A stretch of DNA of 64,000 nucleotides. It comes from Sphyrna mokarran. Taxonomy: Eukaryota. Every line of letters begins with the position of its first letter. Position 1 is the first letter of the stretch. A program made the position numbers and the translations under genes. The notes below the pieces were generated by a model. The model saw only the letters and a list, made by a program, of their open reading frames with translations. It searched no databases and was not told the origin of the DNA. Below, piece by piece: positions 21,690 to 59,439 of the stretch. The stretch covers positions 16,306,001 through 16,370,000 of the forward strand of contig JAGIQG010000013.1 of the NCBI GenBank assembly GCA_024679065.1, in the 5' to 3' direction.

Positions 21690-21985
21690 GCATGGTGGCA
21701 CAGTGGTTAGACTGCTGCTTCACAGTACCAGGGATTTGGTTCCATTCTGGCCTTGGTTCATTGTTTGCATGGAGTTTTCATGTTCTCCTGTGTCTGCATG
21801 GGTTTTCCCTGGGTGCTATGGTTTCCTCCCACATTCCAAAGATGTGCAGATTAGGTTAATTTACTGTCAGGGGGACTAGATAGGATAAATACTTGGGGTT
21901 ATGGGGACAGGGTGTGGATGGGATTGTTGTCAGTGCAGGTTTGATGGGCCAAATAGCGGCCTTTTGTACTGTAGGGATTCTATGA
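21690..21985 (+). mobile_element. tRNA-derived HE1/V-type SINE (tail type b), tandem to previous
   Basis: gcatggtggcacagtggttag head, V-domain, gtagggattctatg tail. Confidence 0.85.
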
Positions 21986-26169: not shown

Positions 26170-26845
26170 ATGAGTCTATTCTCAATCATCAGCAAAGTAA
26201 TGGAACATGGCATCAACTGTGCTATCAAACAGCACTTGGTTAGCAATCACCTGTTCACTGACATTAAACTTATGTTCCATTAGGGTCACTGAGCACTTGA
26301 TCTTATTACAACTGTAATCTAAATATGAACAAAAGAGCTCAAAACTCCAGAGGTAAGTGTGACTGCTTTTGATATGAAGGCAGTGTTTGACAATGTGACA
26401 TCAAGGACCCCCAGCAAAACTGAAGTCATTGGGAATTGGGGGAGACATCTCTGTGCTGGTTGGACTCATACCTGACACAAAGGAAGATTTTTATGGTTGT
26501 TGGAGATCAGTCATCTCAGGCGCAGGGTATCACTGAAGGAGATCTTCAGGATAATGTTCTTGGCCCATCCATCTTCAGCTGTTTCTTCAATGACCTTCCC
26601 ACCATCATAGGTCAGAACTGAGGATGTTAATTTGCAACTTTTGAGATACTGAAGCGGCCCATGTCCATTATCAGGCAATATTCAGGCTGGAGCTAATAAA
26701 TGGCAAGTGACAGTGTCAGGCAATGACCATCTCTACAAGAGAGAATCTAACCATTGCCCCTGACACTTAATGGCATTATTGTCACTGAATTCCCCACTAT
26801 CAGCATCCAGGAGGTTACCATGACCAGACACTGAACAGGACACCC
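26170..26845 (+). mobile_element. RT fragment of old LINE (same family as 53370-57095)
   Basis: WLDSYLTQRKIFMVVGDQSSQ...VLGPSIFSCFFNDLP. Confidence 0.8.
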
Positions 26846-27679: not shown

Positions 27680-30140
27680 TGTATCCCTCCATCTCTAATC
27701 TGCTCATGTCCTTTCTAGGTAAGCCTTAAACAACCCTAGCATTGTCTGCCTCCACCACCCCACTTAGCAATGCATTCCAAGCCCCCACAACCCTCTGTGT
27801 GAAAAACCTCCCTCAAACAACTGAATTATACCTCACCTTGAGCCTGTGATTTTTCACATCCAAATTAGGAAAAAGCATCACACTGTTCAGTCTATACCCT
27901 TTCATAATTTTATATGCCTCTATTAGGTCGCCCCTCATTCTCCATCTTGCCAGAGAGAACAACTCCAATTTGCCCAACCTCTCCTCATAGCTAAGACCCT
28001 CCATACCAGGCAGCATCCTAATAAACTTCCTCTGCACTCTCTCCAAGGCCGCCACATCCTTCCAGTAGTGTGGTGACCAGAACTGGACACAGTACTACAA
28101 ATATGGTCTAACCAACGAGGTACACAACAGCAACATTAGATGCCAGTTTTTATACTCTATAACCCCTTCCAATGAAGGCAAGCATACCATATGGCGCCTT
28201 CATCACCTGTGCTGCCACCTTCAAGGACTTGCACACCTAGGTCCCTCTGTGTTTCTATATTCTTAATGGCCTTACCATTTATTGGATAGCTACCCCCTAC
28301 ATTATTTCTTCCAAAATGCATCACCTCACATTTACTTGGATTAAATTTCATTTGCCATTTCACTGCACAATGGTAGGATTCTTAATAGTGTTGATGAACA
28401 GAGGGATCTTGGTGTATATGTGCACAGATCCCTGAAAGTAGGCAGTCAAGTCGATAAGGTTGTTAAGAAGGCATATGGAGTCTTAGCTTTTATTGGTAGG
28501 GGGATTGAATTTCGGAGCCGCAACGTCATGTTGCAACTGTACAAACTCTAGTGCGGCCGCACTTGGAGTATTGTGTGCAGTTCTGGTCCCCACATTATAA
28601 GAAAGATGTGGAGGCATTGGAGAGGGTACAGAGGAGGTTTACCAGGATGTTGCCTGGTATGGAGGGCAGGTCTTATGAAGAGAGGCTGAAGGATTTGAGG
28701 TTGTTTTCGTTAGAAAGGAGGCGGCTAAGAGGGGACCTTATCGAAATATATATGATTAGAGGTTTAGATAGGGTGGACAGTGATAGCCTTTTTCCTAGGA
28801 TGGAGAAAGCTAGCACGATGGAAAAACAGCTTTAAATTAAGGGGTGATAGTTATAGGACGGATATCAGAGGTAGGTTCTTTACCCAAAGGGTGGTTCGGG
28901 AGTGGAATGCCCTGCCTGTGGCAGTTGTAGATGCGCGAAGTTTGGTGGCGTTTAAGAGGTTAGTTGATAAGTATATGGAAGAGAAGGGAATGGTTTAGTT
29001 TGGAGGGTCATTGCTTTTTATATTGATTGGCGCAACATCGAAGGCCGAAGGGCCTGTTCTGTGCTGTAATGTTCTATGTTCTATGCTGTATTGTCTGACA
29101 CTGTTCATCACTATCAGCAATTCCAGTCATCTTCGTGTCAGCTGCAAACTTGCTGATCACACCAGTTACTCCCTCTTCCAAATCATTTATATGTATCACA
29201 AAAGCAGCGGTCCCAGTAGAGAGCCCTACAGAACACCACTAGTCACAGACTTCCAGCTAGAAAAAGGTCCTTCCACTGCTACCCTGTTTCCTGTTGCCAA
29301 GCCAATTCTGAACCCATCTAGCCACCTGTCCTTGTATGCCATGAGCCTTAACCTTTTTCACCAATCTGTCATGAGGGACTTTGTCAAATGCCTTATTGAA
29401 ATCCATGTAGAGCTCTTGCTTTGTCAACTGTTTCTATCATCTCCTCAAAAAAATTCCACCAGATTTGTAAGGCACAACCTCTGTTTTACAAAGCCACGTT
29501 GCCTGTAATCAGATTACTATGTTCTAAATGCACGTACATCCTATCTCTAAGAATCTGTCTAACTTCCCTATCACTGACGTCAAGCTCACCAGCCTATAAT
29601 TACCAGGGTTATCCCTACTACCCTTTTTTAAACAGTACCATATTTGCTATCCTTCAATCCTCTGTGACCTTACCTGTGTCTAAAAAAGAGACAAAGATTT
29701 CCTTCAGAGGCCCAGCAATTTCATCTTGTGTCTTCCTAAGCAGCCTAGGATAAATGCCATCAGGCTCTGGAGACTTGTCAGTTTTAATATTACCTAAAAA
29801 CCATTACACTTCTTCCCTTGTAATGGAGATTTTCTCCATCAGGTCAACAACTCACTCCAAGACACTTCCAGACAACAAGTCCCTCTCCTTTGTGAATAAT
29901 GACAAGTATTCATTCAGGATCTCCCCCATTCCCTTGAGCTCTAAACATAATTCCCCTCTTTTGTCCCTAAGAGGACCGATTTTTTTTTTCTCTTAAAAAC
30001 TCTTTTGTTTCTAACACATGAATAAAATGCCTTTGGATTATTCTTAATCTTGTCTGCCAAGACCATTTTGTGACCTCTTTTCGCCCTTCTAACTCCCCAT
30101 TTGAGTTCTCTCCTATTCTCTTTGTATTCCTCCAAAGCTC
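27680..30140 (-). mobile_element. CR1 LINE ORF2 remnant hosting a young CR1
   Basis: [25 protein letters not shown]; WQMKFNPSKCEVMHFGRNN; LADKIKNNPKAFYS. Confidence 0.85.
28369..29085 (+). mobile_element. Young CR1 3' part
   Basis: [35 protein letters not shown]; nearly identical to 46496-47114; (gttctat)n tail. Confidence 0.93.
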
Positions 30141-30429: not shown

Positions 30430-30683
30430 TTTATAGCAATGGAATCACCACAAACTGCAAGTTCCCCTCCAAGCTCATCACAACCCTGGCTTTGAACTAA
30501 ATCACTGTTCCTTCAATGTTGTTGGGTCAAACTTCTGGAACTCCCAAACAGCACCTCGTGTGTACACACATAACAGTTTGCAGTAATTCAAGGTGACTCA
30601 CCAGCACATTAAGGATATTTAGGGTTGGACAATAAATGCTGGGTTTTACAAGTAATGCTCACATCCCAAGATCAAATAAAAAA
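30430..30683 (+). mobile_element. 3' end of old LINE family
   Basis: Matches the reverse complement of 51050-51220; ends ggacaataaatgctggg...gctcacatcccaagatcaaataaaaaa. Confidence 0.7.
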
Positions 30684-33173
30684 GGTCATGAATCAGAATT
30701 CAGTAACTCCAGTAGTATGTGTTGGCATAAATTTATCTATTTGAAAAACAGATTACTATTAAAGAATGTGCTAAGAAACAGCAAAATATCATTTTTAATA
30801 ATACTTTTATCTCTTTTACCAGTAAATATAAGTCTGGTAAAACCTTTATCTTCAAATATATTATCTGGTTTGACATCATTTACAACTGATCAAACAATGG
30901 TGAGAAAATAGCCAGGAAAAAATGTAATTTATCATAAAAATCCAACTGGCTTGCTACTGGCATTTAGGAAACAGTGTTTGTCCCAATACCCGGTGTAACA
31001 TGCATGTGATTGCTGTCAAACACAATGCATTTGACTCAATACTGTGGCTGTTAAGCAACAAGGATATAGAGGAATTTCATACAAATCTTACATCAACATT
31101 GACTATTAAAATCTTTATGGCAGAAGAAAGGAGATTTCATTTTAATTTTAATCAATTAATTTAGCTCATTGCTTCCCAAATTTCCTTACAGTTTACTACT
31201 CACCTATAAATTTTTTTTATATATAATGGATACTAAATGGGAACTGAATTAGATCTCTCTGTCATGATCCAATTAGCTCTGGCTTCATAAACACTGTTTC
31301 CACTGAAAAGATTATTAGTCTCAATGTAATGGTATGGATGTAGTACCTCACTTACACAGCCCACATGATAAGCTTTAATTAGCCCAAAACAAATTAAATT
31401 ACACCAGGCTTGGTAATACTTTGAAAGAAAAGTATTTGGGAACCAATCCCTAATAATATATCCAAGTGGTCATGGGGGACAGACACAGTTACACGTGAGC
31501 TAGAGTTGTAGTCGGAAAGAAGTGCTGCATGATGCTGAGTTGCTTCCTCATCGATAACTTGAATGCTAAGCTATTCACAAGCATAATGAATGCTAAGCAT
31601 AACACAAAGATCTTGTGTTTAGGATTGTGTTGTACGGATAGACATGGTGATCAACAAATTACCAGGAAGAACAGGACTTATTTTTAAAAAATCAGTGTTA
31701 TAACGGGAAGATGATTTGGTCAGTTTTCTCAAAGAATTAATACATTCCTTATCCAAGTTCTTCCTCTATTCTGGAAAAAAAGTGATTACCACTCATTTTA
31801 AAATATGTAAAGAAACAGTACAATATCATTCCCAATAGTATATTTTCTATTTTATTGGTTAATACAGCACAAAAAAATCTAATAAAACCACATCCTCAAA
31901 TATATTTTCCAGTTTGACACCATTTACAGTTAATTGAACAACATTTTCAACTGAACACACTTGTCATTAGAGGTAAGCTGTTTCTGAATACTTTCCTTTC
32001 AGTTTATACTGCAAACAATTAACACTGAACTGGTTTACAAAAACCATTTTCCATGCTTAAGAACAATCCACTGAAAAAAAATAAAAAATATGTACAAAGA
32101 AATATGATTTTGAAAAGATTGGAGTCATTGGAATAATACTGCATTAATAGCTATTGACATTTCAACTACAATAACAAAATATTGGAAATCTGAAATGAAT
32201 ACAAAATTGCTGGACATATACATCAGGTCTAGCAACACCTATGAACAGAGTTTACTATTTTAGCTTGATGATCTTGCATCAGAATTGACTGAAAGCGTAA
32301 CTCTTTCTCTTGCCACAGATGCTTTCAAACTTGCTGAGTGCCGACATTTTAATTGTACAATAAATAATAAATTAACATTGTAAAATAAATTCATCCTGTA
32401 CACAATTTTATTACCATAAGCTGAGCTTTGTGTTACCATTTGATGGTTAGCAGTAGCTAAACACAAGAGCAGCTTTGAATATCCTCATCCCACAAGGTGA
32501 AATAGTATCTTTCCCCGGAATTCTATTCCTTTGAGTTACAGACATAAATGTCCCAAAGTAAGTTTTGGTCCCTTAGCATACATCTTACCAATTCTTAATC
32601 ATGTCAGTGTTGGAGTTAACTATTACAGGAGGATAATCCATCTTGAGAGAAAAACTGATTAATCGGCTTTCTTGAGAACCATAAGCACACCTCCAAGCAC
32701 AAAGCAGCATTGGTAGCATTTGCATGATTTTCTGTCGAGCAGATTTTCCCTCCCAGGTAAAGAATTCATGAGATGAACCACAGTTATTTAACACTATCAT
32801 TCTATACTATATTGTTTATGATAACTGGTATCTGAATGATATCTGAGATGCTATTATATAATCTTTAAGATACAAAATGTCTGTCTTTTCCTGTTTGAAA
32901 ATTACTTTTCATTAAATTCAACTGAATTTAATAAAATGCAATGCTACAAGTCAGCAGCTACAACATTAGAGAATTCCGTCATAGAAGCTCTTTTTAAACA
33001 GTTTCCTTAAAATACATCCAAGAGCATTACATTCAGTTTGTTTTTTTTTACAAATAAATAGATTTTTGTAAGTAAAGTTTCCAGTGATTAAAAACTTTAG
33101 GTTAACCTAATTATATTCCAACATAAATGTCAGCAATTCAATATTGAAAGAGCTGAAAATTTATCAGATTTAA

Positions 33174-38894: not shown

Positions 38895-39182
38895 ATAAAA
38901 TCCCGAGAGTGCAGGAGGCCATTCGGTCCATCAAGCTGCTCGAACAACAATCCCACCCAGACCGTTTCCCTATAATCTCATATATTTACCTCGCCGATCC
39001 TCTGACACTAAAGGGTAATTTAGCATGACCAATCCACCTAACCAGCATAACTTTGGATTGTGGGAGGAAACCGAAGCACCCAGAAGAAACCCAGGCATTC
39101 ACGGAGAGAACATGCAAACTCCACACAAGCAGTGACGTGAGGTCAGAACAGAGCTAACAGTGCTAACCACTATGCCACAACG
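38895..39182 (-). mobile_element. tRNA-derived HE1/V-type SINE (tail type b)
   Basis: tgggaggaaaccgaagcacccagaagaaaccc; gtgctaaccactatgccac head on the reverse strand. Confidence 0.85.
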
Positions 39183-50536: not shown

Positions 50537-51019
50537 TTGTCAACAGTAACTGAAGGCAAAGGGAGAAAAATGAAAAATTATAAACGTTTAAGAAGAAAAC
50601 AGGAAAAAGCAAAATAATTGAAATATTAAAAAGTTACAAGGGAAAAAAGATATACATTTTTACAATTCACCAGGCAGATAGTGTCAGCTTTTTGAAAATA
50701 AAACCATAAAATCAGTGATTACTTTAAAATTAAAGACATTTCATCCATATATCCCGATAGATTTATGGTGCAGATGACAAATAAATTGAGCACACAGAGA
50801 TCAAACTAAATTATTCAATAGTTTTGTTATACATGCAGAGATTTAACACGCTCTGGTCAAACCTATTCATGTAAGCTGTGGAGACTACTGAGACTGTGCC
50901 CAAATTATAACCAAGAAACAATTCTATAAAATAAATAAGGTCACCAATCAAAATGAACTACAGGGATGTTCGAAATATTCAGAAGAAATAAAATGTAGGA
51001 GTTCACTGAGTTCCCATAT

Positions 51020-51975
51020 TAAAATTGCCTCCGAGAAGGTGGGGGTGAGCTGGCTTCTTGAACCACTGCAATCCATACAGTATACGTGCACCCACAGTGC
51101 TGTTAGAAAAGGAGTTTCAAGACTTTGACTCAGCAATAATGAAGGAACGGCGATATATTCCCAAGTCAGGCTGGTGACTGTGTTTTGGAAGAGAATTTGC
51201 AGGTGGTAGTGTTCCCATGCATCTGCTGCCCTTGTTCTTCTAGGCAGTAGAAGTCATTGGTTTGGAAGGTGCTGTATAAGAATACATTGGGAGTTCATGG
51301 ACTGCATCTTGTAGATGGTACTCACTGTTACCACTGCATCGATAGTGGAGAGAGTGAATGGTTAAGTTGGTAAAACTTAAAAGCATTGTCTTTGTTAACT
51401 TCTGTACACCACTGCTACATACTGTACAGTCAAGTGGGCTCCTTTATCCTGGATGATGTCAAGCTTCTTGAGTGTTGTTGGAGCTGTTCTGATCCAGACA
51501 AGTGGAGAGTATTCTATCACACTCCTGACATGTGCCTTGTAGATGGACACGCTTAGGGGAGAGACAAAGTGAGTTATTCTCCACAAAATTTCTAGCTACT
51601 ACCTTCTGGTCAATGGTAACCCCAGGATGTTGCTGGTGGGGGATTCAATGACGGTAATGCCTTATGTATTGTATTATGACTTATTGTAAAATTGCACTGT
51701 ATGAATTTCAGGGGCAGATGGTTAGATTCTCTCTTGTTGAAAATGGTCAATGCTGGGCACTTGTGTGATACAAATGTTAATTGCCACTTATCAGCCCAAG
51801 CCTGAATATTGTCCAGATCTTGCTGTACATGGACACAAAAGCTTCAGCATCTGAGTCCCTGTGAATTGTGAACATTGTGTTATCATCAGCAAACATCCTC
51901 ACTTCTAACCTTATGATAGAAGGACAATCATTGATGAAGCAGTTGAAAATGGCTGGGCCTAGGTCAGTGCCTCCT
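51020..51975 (-). mobile_element. Old LINE 3' part (same family as 53370-57095)
   Basis: SIYKAHVRSVIEYSPLVWIRTAPTTLKKLDIIQDKGAHL. Confidence 0.82.
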
Positions 51976-52339
51976 CCACTGATGAAACAGACTGAGAGGG
52001 TTACCCAAATAGCAATTTAAAAATGTTAATTCAAATTTTTAAAAAAGTATTTAATTGGTTTACAGGTGGTAGTAAAGAGCATTTTTAAAAGTAACAGCTG
52101 GTATCTGTCTCTAAAGTGTATAATGATGTATGTTTATATATGGATAGATAAAGATGACTATTTAGAGGTTATCTATTAGATGGAAAGATAAATATCTCTT
52201 ATTTTATTTATCACTATTATTTTAAGGTAAGTTAAGTATTTAAATAAAGGAATATGGTTACTTATGGTTAATCAAGAAAACATGGAGAACACAAAGCCTT
52301 GGCTGAAAATCTAGTCACTGTCTCACAGGAGTTAAAAAT

Positions 52340-52957: not shown

Positions 52958-53184
52958 TGTGCTTGCGTGGGTTTTCCCCGGGCGCTCCGGTTTCCTCCCA
53001 CATCCCTGAGATGTGCTCTTAGGCTATCTGGCAAAACAAATTCTCCCTAAATTGTCTCAAATTTGGTTTTTAATCCATAGATCTATAAACATAGACAGGG
53101 ATCACGGGTAGAGGTGGGAACATCGGGGTAGTGGCGTGGGCTCGTTGGGCCGAAGGGCCTGTTTCCCGTGCTGTTTTGTTCTTT
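52958..53184 (+). mobile_element. 5'-truncated V-type SINE (tail type c)
   Basis: gcgtgggttttccccgggcgctccggtttcctcccaca followed by the type-c tail. Confidence 0.88.
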
Positions 53185-53369: not shown

Positions 53370-56300
53370 CAAATTCCCAATGGTGCTTATTGTGCAACCA
53401 GCACGTTAGGAAGGGAGTTCTAGGATTTTAACCCAGTACTAATGAAGGAACAACAATATAGTTCTAAGTGAACAGGATGCATGGCTTGGATAGGAACTTG
53501 CAGAAGATGGTTTCCCATTAACTTGATGCCCTTATCCTTCTAAGTGGCAGAGATCATGGGTTTGAAAGGTGCTATCAAAGGAGCTTTGGTGAGTTGCTGC
53601 AGTGCATCTTATAGATGGTACATACTGTTACCATTGTCCATTAGTAGGGAAAGATATCAATGCTCAAGATAGTGAATGAGATACAAGAAAAGTGGGCTGT
53701 TTACTATCAAGTTTCTTTGTTGGAATTGACTTCATCCAGGTAATGGAGAGTATACCATCACACTTCTGACTTCTACCTTGTAGATGGTGGATAAGCTTTG
53801 GAAAATCAGGGTTCCCAGTCTTTAACCTGCTCTAGTAGCCTCAGTATTTATGAGGCTAGTCCAGGACAGTTTCTGATCAATGTTAACCCCCAGAATATTG
53901 ATAGTGGGGGAACCTGTGATGATAATGTCATTGAATATCAAGGGGTGATCATGTCTTGTTGGAGATGGTTATTGCCTGGAACTTGTATGGCACGAATGTT
54001 ACTTGCCATTTGTCAGTCCAAGCCTGGATATTGTTCCGGTCTTGCTGCATTTGAACATGGGCTGTTTCAGTATCTGAGGAATCCCTAAAGGTGCTGAACA
54101 TTCTCCACTTCTGACCTTATGGTGGGAGTTCCACTGATGAAGCAGCTGAAGATGGTTAGGCCTAGGACATTACTCTGAGGAACACTATTGGAGATGACTG
54201 ACCTCCAAAAACCACATCCATATTCTTTTATGCCAGGTATGTCTCTAACTTGTAGAGAATTTTCCATCTGCTTCCCATTGTCTTGTTTTGCTGGGGCTCC
54301 TTGATGCCATCCTTGATCAACTGTTTCCTTGCTCTCACCTCACCTCTGAAGTTCAGCTCATTTGTCCATGTTAGGAGGAATGTTGAAACAAGGTCAGGAA
54401 CTTGATGGTTCTGGCAGAACCCAGCCTGAGTATCTTGCTGAGTAAATGCTGCTTAATAGCACTATCAATGACACCTTTGATCGCTCTAATGACCACCAGA
54501 AGTAGATTGACAAGTCAGTGATTGGTCAGGTTTGATTTATCCTGCTTTTTGTATATAGGAAATATATGGGCAATTTTCAGCCTCACTGAGTGGATGTCAG
54601 TGTTATAACTGTAGTGGAATAGCTTGGCTAGGAGTGCAGCTAGTTCTGAATCATAAATATTATTTCTGGAATATTGTAAAGGCTTTTGCAGTATCCAGTG
54701 CATTCAGCCATTTGATATCATGTAGAGTGAATTGACTTATAGAACATAGAACACTACAGCACAAACAGGCCCTTCGGCCCACAAGTTGTGCCAAACACAT
54801 CAAAAACCTACCCAGCCATAGACCTATCTATAACCCCCAATCCCATTGGATCCCATATACTCATCCAGAAGTCTTTTAAAAGACCGCAGCGAGTTCGCCT
54901 CGACCACCACCGACGGCAGCCGATTCCATTCACTCACCACCCTCTGAGTGAAAAACTTTCCCCTAGCATCCCCTCTGTACTTGCTTCCCTGCACCTTAAA
55001 TCTGTGCCCTCTCGTCACGACCATTTCAGCCCTGGGAAATAGTCTCTGAGAGTCCACCCTATCTATTCCTCTCAACATCTTGTAAACCTCTATCAGGTCG
55101 CCTCTCAACCTTCGTCTCTCCAGGGAGAACAGTCCCAGCTCCCTCAACCTGTCTTCATAAGGCATGCCTCCCAATCCAGGCAACATCCTTGTAAATCTCC
55201 TCTGCACCCTTTCAATAGCTTCCACGTCCTTCCTATAGTGAGGCGACCAGAACTGCGCACAGTACTCCAAGTGTGGTCTGACAAGGGTCCTATAAAGCTG
55301 CAGCATTACTTCCTGACTCCTGAACTCAATCCCTCGATGAACGAAGGCCAGTACACCGTAAGCTTTCTTAACCACATCCTCCACCTGGGAGGCCGATTTG
55401 AGAGTCTTATGGACCCGGACCCCAAGATCCCTCTGCTCTTCCACACAGCTAAGACTCTTATCTTTGATAGTGTACTCATTCATCCCGTTGGATCTGCCAA
55501 TGGGATGAATGACTTGGATGAAGGTTGGCATTTGTGGCCTCATGGAGAGGCAGAGATGGATCATTGACTTGGCATATCTGGCTGAAGGTGGTTGTAAATG
55601 CTTCAAGGCTTGTGTTTTGCACAGACGTGTTGGGGTCCCCGTCATTGAGAGTGGGATATTTCTGCAGCCACATCCTCCAGTAATGTATTTTATTGCCCCA
55701 ACACCTACGCTGACTGGATGTGGCAGGACTTCAAATCTCAGATCTCATCTGTTGGTTGTAGGATCACTTAGTGCTGCCTAATGCTGCTTCCACTGTATGC
55801 AAGTCGTCCTGTTTTAACTTCAAATCAGCAGCTCATTTTCAGATGTGTCTGATGCTGCTCCTGGCTTACCTTCCTGCTCTCTCTATTGAGCTACAGCTGA
55901 ACCACTGGCTTCAAGTGGGGGATATGTCGTGCCATGAGGTTACAGATTGTGATTGAATTCTGGTGCTGCTGATGGCCCACAGCACCTCGTGGATGCTAGA
56001 TACGAATTGCTAAACCAGTTGAAAATTTAGCCTGGTGGTAAAGCCATACAACACAACGGAAGATATTCTCAATGTGAAGATAGATTTTGTCTCCACAAGG
56101 TCTGTGCGGTGATCACTCCTACCGATATCGTTAAAGACTGAAGCATCTATGAGAAGTAGATTGGTGATGGTGAGGTCAAGTAGGTTTTCCCTCTTGCTTT
56201 CCTCACTGCTTGCCACAGTCTCAATTTAGCTGCTATCTCATTTCCGACACTGCCAACTCAGTCAGTAGTGGTGCTATCAAGCCATTCTTGGTGATGGACA

Positions 56301-57095
56301 TTGAAGTCCCCCTCAGCATATATTCTGTGCACTGGCCACCTCAGTGCAGCTTCCTTCTGTGTTTAATATGGGAGTACTGATTCATCAGTTGACTCGGATG
56401 GGGTGAGAATCTTGTCAATCAGCGGTGGATTTCTTTGTCCACATTTGATCTGATGCCACTTGATGTCTTGGGATCCAGCGTCAACAATGGGACCTCCTAG
56501 GGCAACACATTCCCAACATGTATATAATATATACATATTGAATATATAAAATATATTCAACATGTATATCACTGTACCACCAATTCTGGGATTGTGTTGT
56601 CTGGGACATTGTCCATAACATATGATTCAGTGAGTCAGACTGTTGCCTGACCAGCCTGAGACAACTCTCTCAATTCTGGCACAAACCCCTGTTAATGTTG
56701 GTAAGGAGGACTTTGCAGGGCCAATAGGGCTGGATATGCCATTGTCATTTTTGGTGTTTAAGCCAGTCCCACAAGTGCCATTGGTGTTTAGGTCAATGCA
56801 AGTTTCATTGCTTGTCCGTTTTACTGTAGTGATTACAACTGAATGGCTTGCCAGGCCTTTTCAGAGGGCCTGAATAGAGTGAACCAAAGCAGTAGGTCTG
56901 CAGTCACATATAGTCGAAGTAAGAACGGCAGATTTCCTTCTTTAAAGAACATTGGTGGACCTTATGGGCCTTTTCAACAATCGACTATGATTTCATGATT
57001 ATTACTTGAATTCAAATTCCACCAGCCACCCTGGAGTATTAGCCTGGGTTTCTGGATCATTAATCCAATGACATTATCACCATGCAACCACCCCA
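53370..57095 (-). mobile_element. Near full-length decayed LINE (APE + RT, CR1/L2/jockey supergroup) with SINE-like 5' end
   Basis: LLDLTITN...IGRSDH (APE); ELAALLAKLFHYSYNT...PIYKKQDKSN and VPQSNVLGLTIFSCFI (RT); tRNA/SINE-like head at 56860-57095. Confidence 0.82.
54739..55515 (-). mobile_element. Young CR1 3' part nested in the old LINE
   Basis: ORF 54824-55645 with EEQRDLGV...[24 protein letters not shown]; atagaacatagaac tail; flanks gaattgactt / gaatgactt. Confidence 0.94.
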
Positions 57096-57184
57096 CCTTA
57101 CACTCTACTTCATACTTAACATTTCAAAACATATTTAAAAAACTTTCCCTGAGACACACGTTTCTATTCCACCGCGTAAATGAC

Positions 57185-57359
57185 CTGTAGCACTGTGTGT
57201 CTGAGAGATAGGATAGATCCTCTCCATTCCCAGCTCAGGATGCAGACGTTTCTCCCGCTGCAGAGGGAACACCACTTTGCTCATTGCGTTAGTAATTCTT
57301 CTCCATTCCAATATTAAGCCTGGCAAAGGATGAAGTGGCTTCAATTTCTCCAATATCTC
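57185..57359 (-). CDS. POLQ: POLQ exon (ex22 equivalent), thumb
   Basis: 175 nt; EILEKLKPLHPLPGLILEWRRITNAMSKVVFPLQREK...SQTHSAT; TTTTAG| and |GTCATT. Confidence 0.96.
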
Positions 57360-58038
57360 CTAAAATAAATAAAGGACTGATCAGATTACATTGTTTTTAA
57401 TATGCCATCCTTGACTTAATTTTTTTATTGCTCCAACATAAAAATCTGTTTGAATTTGCTTGTTCCATTTTGATATTGTTTGTGTCAATGTCAAACTTTG
57501 GAAGATGCTCTTTCTTTGCATTTACCATTTAGTATTTACCTGCTATCTATATTCTGAAGTCTTATTTACCTTATGTATCAGCAACTGGCACCAGATACTT
57601 TCAGTCTTTAATCAGTTTTTCATGGAGTAATTCTCAATAACTTGCACAATAAATTCAGCTGACATGTTAAAATGCCTGTTTGATGTAACACACCCTCATC
57701 TTACCACTCCTATAATCGTCATCTCTTTTAATTCATTAGCTTTTATTGTTGCTTCTTGTTGCCAATAAAGATTCCTCGAAAGTCTCGTGACTGCAATTTA
57801 TTCCAACTCTTAGGAGGACATCTATGAATCTTTCATGCGTCAGTCAAATGTTTCCTCATCATCTATAATGCATGGTTACATTTCTCACTTAATTTCCAAC
57901 ACTCACTCACAACTGACTGAACAAATATTAAGATGTATATTCCACACCCATGAGTCAAACAAGCCTTACTTGATTCCCTTTTTATTTTTCTTTTAGGATT
58001 AGGAAAGTACAAAGTTTCCATAACAACCACACAATTAC

Positions 58039-58173
58039 CTTATTAGTGCTGAATTGTTTAGCCAGCCTGCTGCGTCCTCCTGTTGGTGCTTTCCTCCTGG
58101 TGGAACCAAGTGTCCTCTTGCCATTCGTGTTAGCATCCCCATTCGGAGGAAGTTTCAGCTCCAAAAACAGAGC
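58039..58173 (-). CDS. POLQ: POLQ exon (ex21 equivalent), thumb with insert 1
   Basis: 135 nt; ALFLELKLPPNGD...KRTLGSTRR...LAKQFSTNK; TTCTAG| and |GTAATT. Confidence 0.95.
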
Positions 58174-58694
58174 CTAGAACAGGAATTAAATCGCTGAGTC
58201 TGTGAAATTTTGAGTAGGGCAAAGTAGCAAGTCCAGAAACGGGCTGTTTTGTTGAACTGCGGATATTTTGTAAGATTTTGTATAAAAGCTGCAGTTCCTG
58301 TAGGCCTTTTGTTAAGCAATTGCTGCGGTGGGATACATTCGCTGTGTTGAAATCACCATAAAATTCACGTATAAAATCCAAATTTTAAAAAAGAGAAGCC
58401 TGTGGGCTTGTGGACGATATGAAATATTAATACATCTATATCTTAGGTTCACATGGGATATTGTAGCACAGCACATTTACATTTCAACACAATATTCAGT
58501 CTAAATCTTCCAAAAATATTGAATATCAATATCACGAATTGAACTCAGTCTCAACAGTCACTGCAATTAAAATAGTGCAACAGTGCACTGAAACTTCAGC
58601 CAAATTGACAATTTCTCCAGTGGAAGATGTAAGAGATATTTCACACCCTGGCCATTGCTCTTAATAAGAATTCAGATCTATAATACAATCTTAC

Positions 58695-58888
58695 CGTAGC
58701 AACATCATCTGAGCTGGTCAGAGAGAAGCTGTGACCTACGAGCTGGTAAGCCTGTGCCTCTATGAAAGCTAGCTTGGCCTGCATTTGGGATTTTTGGTTC
58801 TCACATTCAGCTGTACTGAATCCTATTCCATTCATCTCCAACAAGGCCAGGCAATACTGCGTTTTCATTTCAACATTCCGAAACACAT
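58695..58888 (-). CDS. POLQ: POLQ exon (ex20 equivalent)
   Basis: 194 nt; DVFRNVEMKTQYCLALLEMNGIGFSTAECE...FSLTSSDDVAT; TTGCAG| and |GTAAGA. Confidence 0.96.
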
Positions 58889-58935
58889 CTGCAAGCGAAC
58901 GTTACATATTGGTAAAATTTAACACCACGGTACAA

Positions 58936-59244
58936 GGGGAGGTGTAACATAGTGGTATTACCAGAGACCTAGGTTCAAATCCCACCATGGCAGGTGGTGG
59001 AATTTGAATTCAATGAAAAACTGGAATTAAAAGTTTCATCATGACCATGAAACCATTGTCGATTGTCACAAAAACCCATTTGGGTCACATATGTCCTTTA
59101 GGGAAGGAAATCTGCTGTCCTTACCTGATTGGCCTACATGTGACTCCAGACCCACAACAATATGGTTGACTCTTAAATACCCTCAGGAATGGGCAATAAA
59201 TGCAGCCCAGCCAGTGATGCCCACATCCCATGAATAAATAAAAA
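58936..59244 (+). mobile_element. tRNA-derived SINE with non-V central domain
   Basis: tagtggta A-like box, ggttcaaatcc B box (58972-58982), core gtcctttagggaaggaaatctgc, tail gggcaataaatgc...cccacatcccatgaataaataaaaa. Confidence 0.85.
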
Positions 59245-59439
59245 CAAAGGTATTTCACAATTGTCTTTTCCTCAATTAATACAATGCTTTGCCAGTCCCG
59301 ATGTACTGCAAGATTGATAGGGTGGATTAATGGTACATTTAAGCTGCACCTTGTGTACAGGAGACAGGATAGATGGATCAATTATTTTTCTCCCTGTCCT
59401 GTTTTTATATTTGTGTGTTAAGTTATGATGTTGCCGTCC

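Follow-up and report, generated by a model that had tools for sequence, protein, structure and literature searches.

A tRNA-type head at the 5′ end of elasmobranch Zenon LINEs and a short element made of the two LINE ends

The stretch analysed here, referred to as the window, comprises 64,000 nucleotides (nt) of Sphyrna mokarran DNA (GenBank assembly GCA_024679065.1, contig JAGIQG010000013.1, positions 16,306,001 to 16,370,000), and all positions below are those of the window. It contains a Zenon-type long interspersed nuclear element (LINE) on the − strand (53400..57097) and, 1.8 kb away and diverging from it in orientation, a short element of 309 nt on the + strand (58936..59244). The focal LINE copy is complete at its 5′ end and truncated at its 3′ end, where the final 100–140 nt of the element are absent, and it is interrupted by stop codons, frameshifts and internal deletions; approximately 2.86 kb are left once two insertions are subtracted. 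It opens with a tRNA-type head (57029..57097, −), recognised from the sequence, from alignments and from a by-eye match to published consensus rows. The head is followed by a 5′ untranslated region (UTR) core which, according to alignments, is common to the LINE and the short element (56839..57028, −). In the short element, about 250 nt from the LINE 5′ end are joined to about 60 nt from the LINE 3′ end. A first-pass annotation, made from the letters alone, had proposed a LINE with just one open reading frame (ORF) and a tRNA-derived 5′ UTR, beside a short interspersed nuclear element (SINE) built from both ends of that LINE.

The LINE and the short element share a head, a core and a 3′ end

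The short element (58941-59205, +) aligns with the 5′ end of the LINE (57081-56839, −) with a score of 156, compared with a mean of 26.6 and a maximum of 43 in 500 shuffles, which bears out the alignment of head and core reported in the first pass. Identity is 54/69 over the head part and 108/143 over the core, and whole-window blastn paired the LINE 5′ end with the short element at E 2e-15. The first 60 nt taken alone, ahead of the inverted arm that both copies share, are marginal, with a score of 24 that 15 of 1000 shuffles attained. Since the LINE and the short element are only approximately 76% identical, a recent local duplication is disfavoured.

The tail of the short element (59185..59244, +), which from alignment and folding is LINE-derived, with a stem-loop and a short A-rich end, matches a sister copy at 30621-30682 with a score of 54 that none of 1000 shuffles reached. 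This sister copy (30438..30683, +), identified by alignments to the focal LINE and to the short-element tail, carries the true 3′ end of the family. Its segment 30438-30545 matches 53519-53413 of the focal LINE (E 7e-10), and the tail therefore belongs to the Zenon LINE family, in agreement with the earlier suggestion that it derives from the 3′ end of the same family. A short A-rich run closes the short element and, at 30683, the sister copy; the focal copy has no 3′ end. Another sister copy (50960..51994, −), running from the reverse transcriptase to the C-terminus and recognised by sequence and protein matches, has a decayed tail in which the short-element tail was not found (score 14, reached by 712 of 1000 shuffles). 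The parts derived from the 5′ UTR and from the 3′ end meet at 59183..59195 (+), at a short purine-ATGG microhomology.

The head of the focal LINE retains a degraded A-box region, an anticodon-like hairpin (57068-57052) and a second hairpin (57047-57030). Approximately 24 nt including the B box have been deleted at about 57029, and the core then opens with the B-box arm repeated in inverted orientation (57009-57023); the two caveats attached to this copy from the start, that the B box and roughly the last 100 bp are missing from it, both hold. The two window heads have complementary losses, as the short element retains only half of the anticodon arm and has no second hairpin. It has a B box with a T-arm-like motif (58972..58986, +), the sole exact match in the window, and an A-box-like motif with one mismatch (58945..58955, +), of which only the position is informative, because such matches occur in the window at chance frequency (55 found, 50 expected). 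The spacing between the two boxes is just 16 nt because two head pieces were lost from this copy. The LINE keeps two hairpins which the short element has lost, and so did not take its head from that neighbour.

In the short element the B-box arm and its downstream inverted copy form a 14-bp inverted repeat (58974..59008, +; 93% complementary, 7-nt loop) whose fold has a z of −2.25 (4 of 200 shuffles). The 3′ stem-loop (z −1.63, folding against shuffles) and the cores of the LINE and the short element (z −1.55 and −1.24) do not fold significantly. In both window copies, as in the published rows, the head is followed by the inverted B-box arm, which puts a B-box-like site on the opposite strand.

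A single complete short element was found in the 64-kb window; we presume that the short form is common in shark DNA. The best candidate for a target-site duplication measures 4 nt, which is chance level, and a protein search with the short-element frame gave no match. No run of four T (T4) occurs within its 309 nt, a weak result as 0.8 would be expected, and the first T4 downstream lies at 59266, 22 nt past its end.

The same head opens the Zenon consensus of five shark and ray species

From its sequence and its published relatives, the focal LINE is a member of the elasmobranch Zenon family of the CR1 group, with one predicted ORF for endonuclease and reverse transcriptase. Zenon elements of elasmobranchs, coelacanth and hagfish are all described as having no ORF1 and a poly-A tail (PMC13343379, Stuart et al. 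2026). A 13-nt motif from the window occurs five times in the supplement of that paper, each time in a shark Zenon row. The published consensus rows were compared over their first 400 nt, by eye; the elasmobranch rows are CarCar_, ScyCan_, HypSab_ and RhiTyp_Zenon-1 and SquAca_Zenon-1 to -3 (Carcharodon, Scyliorhinus, Hypanus, Rhincodon and Squalus; five species). All seven start with the head seen in the window and continue into the same core, two of them reaching the start of the endonuclease. The head is in none of the three hagfish and coelacanth Zenon rows, whose 5′ ends may be less well resolved. Copy numbers range from 59 to 2313 for the six rows with readable counts (Table S3, PMC13343379).

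Because the consensus of five shark and ray species begins with the same head, the junction between LINE and head is not a one-off. A chance insertion or recombination, which the first-pass annotation had envisaged should other copies have a different 5′ UTR or an ORF1, was accordingly dropped as an explanation: 7/7 consensus rows from five species start with the head. The architecture of a single-ORF LINE with a tRNA-type 5′ end, and a short element of both ends, is thus supported by sequence comparison at the family level. In the window, the head, core and endonuclease are contiguous within one genomic copy. Single-ORF Zenon and internal-deletion derivatives of Zenon were already known; the head as a family-wide architecture is apparently undescribed. 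The main text of PMC13343379 mentions neither tRNA, Pol III nor promoter, and has SINE once, in the reference list. No description of a family-wide tRNA head was found in the literature searched, which consisted mostly of titles and the beginnings of abstracts with few subscription papers, so that it may already be in print.

The head has a tRNA-like layout

By eye, the published rows share the order 5–10 nt, A box, 5-bp hairpin, second hairpin, B box and inverted B-box arm. The consensus 5′ ends thus lie 5–10 nt ahead of the A box; in tRNA, the A box is preceded by 7 nt. The 7-nt hairpin loop is exactly CTAGTAA in four of the seven elasmobranch rows and AGT is kept in 6/7 (again by eye). This AGT could be read as a threonine anticodon, and we assume a likeness of the head to vertebrate tRNA-Thr. 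In the Squalus rows, inspection by eye shows the second hairpin to be a near-tandem duplicate, 21 nt long, of the anticodon arm. Between these rows and those of Carcharodon, Scyliorhinus and Rhincodon, two pairs of the second hairpin are changed on both sides with pairing kept, as judged by eye.

Exact B-box 10-mers are found in 5/7 elasmobranch rows, the B box being damaged in the other two. When the whole supplementary file was searched over the first 400 nt of each row, all three matches to the 10-mer TTCGAATCCC were shark Zenon, as were two of the four matches to TTCAAATCCC. Reading the core as hammerhead-like (TGA...GAAAC...GTC) was rejected, as the core pair and the stems were unfit by eye and there was no Rfam match.

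The coding region leaves no space for an ORF1

Decayed AP endonuclease sequence and a linker occupy 55506..56714 (−), beginning at motif I, KVLLTNI. The motif lies at about 56714, approximately 146 nt past 56860, in line with the first-pass claim of endonuclease-like sequence within about 150 nt of that position; the corresponding Pfam match is weak (PF14529, E 0.0069, under the curated cut-off, in one of the six frames given). Since only approximately 385 nt separate the start of the head from endonuclease motif I, there is no space for an ORF1 in the focal LINE, and this part of the initial description was likewise upheld. A conserved ATG ahead of the endonuclease (window 56800-56690, −) seems, from the Hypanus row and the window frames, to begin a short frame that is out of step with motif I, and the Heptranchias protein P0008 is annotated as starting at a Met downstream of the endonuclease. 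The start codon of Zenon may be non-AUG or dependent on a frameshift.

Two insertions interrupt the coding region. The smaller, found by sequence searches of the window, is an AT-rich palindrome within the endonuclease region (56512..56570, no strand assigned), which bears an 11-nt repeat at its ends and weakly resembles the AT-rich stretch 58453-58535 (E 0.007). The larger is a 3′ piece of another CR1 LINE, better preserved and with a 306-amino acid open frame (54739..55505, −), flanked by a 10–11 nt target-site duplication (55515-55506 / 54738-54728, one indel). The shark and ray proteins P0006, P0008 and P0009 match colinearly on either side of it. Beyond it lies the decayed reverse transcriptase region with the C-terminus (53400..54738, −), recognised by protein and nucleotide matches.

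Four of the five short protein matches to the reverse transcriptase fragments are whale shark predicted proteins, and the four longer ones include Mobula and Heptranchias; a full-length ORF is absent among these matches retrieved with the reverse transcriptase frame. RVT_1 is found in the whale shark homologue P0001 (E 1.2e-6) and at E 0.033 in two sister copies. It was not detected in the focal LINE frames submitted to Pfam, and a Pfam search of 10 stop-free window frames gave no relevant domain. Neither a protein search with the frame for the C-terminal part of the endonuclease nor a PDB search returned a match.

Other repeats in the window

A further Zenon sister copy, a reverse transcriptase fragment, lies at 26174..26842 (+), identified by sequence and protein matches. 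A much older core-like stretch is present at 30869-31042 (+). It begins 190 nt beyond a Zenon 3′ end and scores 56, whereas 424 tiles of the reversed window reach at most 38, but its nhmmer E is 0.59. The youngest repeat pair in the window consists of CR1 3′ fragments at 28464-29081 (+) and 47114-46494 (−), which are 96% identical. tRNA-headed SINEs of another family, with at least two different 3′ tails, are located at 21696 and 36639 (+), at 39177 and 61378 (−) and at 52960-53184; we take them to be V-SINE/HE1-like, a name that is our assumption. Contaminating shark DNA was sought in bacterial and archaeal genomes, with no matches, and the phage and plasmid collections gave chance-level matches only, none of them on tRNA genes.

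Discussion

The head-bearing LINE is real, family-wide and built from known parts. Retroposons transmit only transcribed sequence, and the head stays exactly 5′-terminal in five species; the RNA must therefore begin, or be cut, at tRNA position +1. On balance, we consider that the head most likely acts as the promoter of the Zenon LINE, a role that is favoured because internal A and B boxes directly set the start at tRNA +1. Before the split of sharks and rays, Zenon would have gained a tRNA-derived head that became its new 5′ terminus, with template switching from a SINE or a tRNA as the probable route. The A and B boxes would bind TFIIIC and fix the start at the first base of the head, such that each new full-length copy would inherit its promoter. 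The Zenon protein would then recognise the 3′ stem-loop and A tail and integrate the element by target-primed reverse transcription; 3′-end recognition and this mode of integration are established for the CR1 group. Deletion of the middle at a short microhomology would leave head, core and tail, that is, a ready-made SINE for RNA polymerase III (Pol III) with no separate acquisition of a head. The element at 58936-59244 has the structure of such a derivative, and would have arisen in that direction.

Should the head be the promoter, it is a tentative possibility, which we would not put at even chances, that the 3.3-kb coding RNA is a product of Pol III itself; if not, RNA polymerase II (Pol II) would start at the same place, with Pol III serving the short forms only. 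The fullest form of the proposal, in which the whole 3.3-kb Zenon is transcribed by Pol III from a captured tRNA promoter and translated cap-free, possibly from a non-AUG or frameshifted start, is doubtful. Transcription of the whole coding RNA by Pol III hinges on T runs being absent. There is no T4 run in 56600-57090, nor by eye in the seven shark and ray rows of 400 nt, and T4 runs are present in all three other Zenon rows. No T4 is shared in any of six Zenon pairwise alignments, compared with 16/21 CR1 control pairs, where the pairs are not independent and one Zenon pair, being too short, was skipped. In the L1/Alu system, ORF1p is dispensable for the retrotransposition of Pol III transcripts (PMC2666806), which is consistent with a Pol III promoter rather than supporting one.

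A number of results weigh against the promoter proposal. For the coding region the T4 counts point both ways, as against the pairwise alignments above the decayed bodies do contain such runs, four in the focal LINE and 10 in the sister copy at 51 kb, where 3.9 are expected, and a three-way Zenon alignment has one shared T4 run in 868 agreeing columns, equal to the count for A runs. An uncapped RNA of 3.3 kb would still have to be translated. Zenon is without ORF1 in all phyla, including those in which this head is absent (PMC13343379), and the missing ORF1 is therefore no argument for Pol III. ARAGORN found no tRNA genes in the 64-kb window, Rfam gave two chance matches only for the whole window at E up to 1, and at E up to 10 it assigned the two window heads to no tRNA and no ribozyme family. 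Of the tRNA-type 5′ end originally proposed for a single-ORF LINE, the head in 7/7 elasmobranch consensus rows stands; a tRNA origin was not recognised by either program in the window copies. The published heads were compared with tRNA and with the window by eye only, the acceptor stem seems poorly kept, and the B-box arm is engaged in a competing 14-bp hairpin. Both window promoters are damaged, the LINE having no B box and the short element an A–B spacing of 16 nt. Finally, the consensus sequences were built by automatic extension with manual inspection (PMC13343379), and extension could have absorbed the heads of abundant short copies.

That last point underlies one rival explanation, in which an abundant bipartite SINE of the Bov-tA type lent its head to the published consensus and the window LINE is a rare chimera. 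The birth of SINEs by this route is known (PMC5786205), extension was automatic, albeit manually inspected, and a head-bearing LINE copy was directly observed only once. However, the sole 5′-complete copy in the window has the head, with two hairpins lost from its neighbour and so not copied from it, and seven per-species consensus rows agree, six of them with 59 to 2313 copies; we regard an artefact of this kind as highly improbable. Clearly unlikely, to a lesser degree, is that the head is a captured passenger, SINE-derived and sitting on an ordinary Pol II LINE with its promoter in the 5′ UTR core, the boxes mattering for short derivatives only. An internal Pol II promoter is the rule for LINEs (PMC2666806), capped RNA would be translated without a special step, lepidopteran Zenon and its derivative Persaeus function without a tRNA head (PMC6740152), and the focal copy, albeit a dead one, is without a B box. 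A passenger head would nevertheless be expected to erode from its 5′ end; instead, both boxes have been retained in five species, as has the position of the start. A Pol II promoter with its start at tRNA +1 by chance would also account for the fixed 5′ end.

The fixed 5′ end could also be explained at the RNA level, given that RNase P cuts at tRNA position +1. Here the head would mimic a tRNA, and RNase P would cut it to release a defined 5′ end out of read-through transcripts of the host, or else it would promote translation without a cap, in a role like that of the HDV-like ribozymes in R2, RTE and L1Tc. The paired changes seen by eye in the second hairpin suggest selection on RNA structure, a tRNA-like, RNase P-cleavable fold has been proposed for the L1Tc 5′ UTR (PMC3383444), and the ATG conserved ahead of the endonuclease does not seem to share its frame. 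Conversely, the acceptor stem that RNase P needs seems poorly kept, the inverted arm would dismantle the T arm, and no ribozyme family was matched in Rfam in the window (E up to 1) or the heads (E up to 10), and we consider an RNA-level role quite improbable.

For the short element, it is more likely, from the one copy seen, that it is an internal-deletion derivative of the LINE rather than the donor of its head, because Zenon repeatedly yields such derivatives (PMC6740152). It could be a one-off internally deleted LINE and not an amplified SINE family, which would be compatible with the head acting as promoter of the LINE. There is one complete copy in 64 kb with no clear target-site duplication, its head losses would spoil the promoter, and LINE copies here carry many internal deletions. 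Against a one-off stand the retention of exactly the two modules needed for mobility, with the element ending at the tail, the T4 run 22 nt downstream, and the much older core-like stretch at 30869-31042; on this evidence we think a one-off event unlikely.

The textbook division assigns LINEs to Pol II, and to Pol III the SINEs, which borrow LINE proteins. This division is blurred by a LINE family with a 5′-terminal tRNA-type A/B box head kept across sharks and rays, and the head suggests that Zenon is switched on differently from other LINEs. Were full-length Pol III transcription true, the LINE and the SINE would be a single transcription unit in a long and a short form, and one deletion could give rise to a SINE; such a one-step origin is an alternative to the head-addition model of PMC5786205. 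Two questions become directly testable: can a natural transcript of Pol III be the mRNA of a retrotransposon, and does the need for ORF1 depend on the polymerase (PMC2666806)? The head also matters for annotation, since copies of such a 5′ end would be taken for SINEs or tRNA pseudogenes.

Comparison with known elements

The window LINE and the published elasmobranch Zenon consensus, which is approximately 3.3 kb with one ORF and an A tail, are of the same family and, over the first 400 nt compared by eye, show no difference in sequence type. Lepidopteran Zenon also has a single ORF, and its derivative Persaeus consists of 260–390 nt from its 5′ and 3′ ends, with microhomology at the deletion (PMC6740152). 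The short element resembles Persaeus in joining the LINE 5′ end to the LINE 3′ end at a microhomology. Persaeus, however, has no homology to tRNA, 5S or 7SL RNA and no Pol III promoter in the published description (PMC6740152), whereas the parent LINE of shark Zenon itself bears a tRNA-type head. With its A and B box motifs, the short element would work like a Persaeus-type element yet is not classed as Persaeus. In bivalves, too, SINEs are mobilised by Zenon (PMC11481361).

Bov-tA, AfroSINE, SINE2_Gav, CoeSINE4 and SINE2-1_ACar are like the short element in combining a tRNA head, a piece of LINE 5′ UTR and a LINE 3′ tail (PMC5786205). These bipartite RTE/Vingi SINEs differ in that the head was added to a non-autonomous derivative, the LINE is headless and the partner is not of the CR1 group (PMC5786205). 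Among elasmobranch SINEs, HE1 is a V-SINE with HER1 as its partner, and SacSINE1 is a DeuSINE with an L2-type tail (PMC5499810, PMC3747384); both share tRNA-derived heads and the host group with the short element, and have other partner LINEs. The V-SINE-like repeats of the window aligned with the short element only at the generic A and B box positions.

The first-pass annotation had suggested comparing the core with known SINE domains, and neither of two candidates fits. The 66-bp Meta domain, which in MetaSINEs comes straight after the head, was rejected as its origin, there being no likeness by eye to BivaMeta-SINE1 or BivaMD-SINE1 and none of six window motifs in the supplement file searched (PMC4824008), and so was the V domain, as the window's V-SINE-like repeats gave no alignment with a score of at least 46. 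For Deu, CORE and UCON3, the comparison comprised exact short motifs in supplements and two UCON3 rows by eye.

A LINE 5′ module that is common to an autonomous element and its internally deleted partner is known from Pr77 of L1Tc and NARTc, which has promoter and RNA-structure roles (PMC3383444). Pr77 differs from the Zenon head in being an HDV-like ribozyme with no tRNA-derived A/B box head, and in belonging to the trypanosome Ingi clade (PMC3383444). In RTE-1_DAn and relatives, a tRNA-like sequence in the LINE was treated as a nuisance match, with no position or function given (PMC5786205); as a tRNA-like stretch within a LINE it is a precedent for shark Zenon, in the RTE clade. The core motif TAGGGAAGGAAATCTG (59099-59114, +; 56944-56929, −) resembles a conserved motif of the RTE 5′ UTR and Ceph domain (PMC5786205); its pattern, which was fitted after the fact, has one match in the window and none in 100 shuffles. 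As both clades are without ORF1, an RNA element common to Zenon and RTE is possible.

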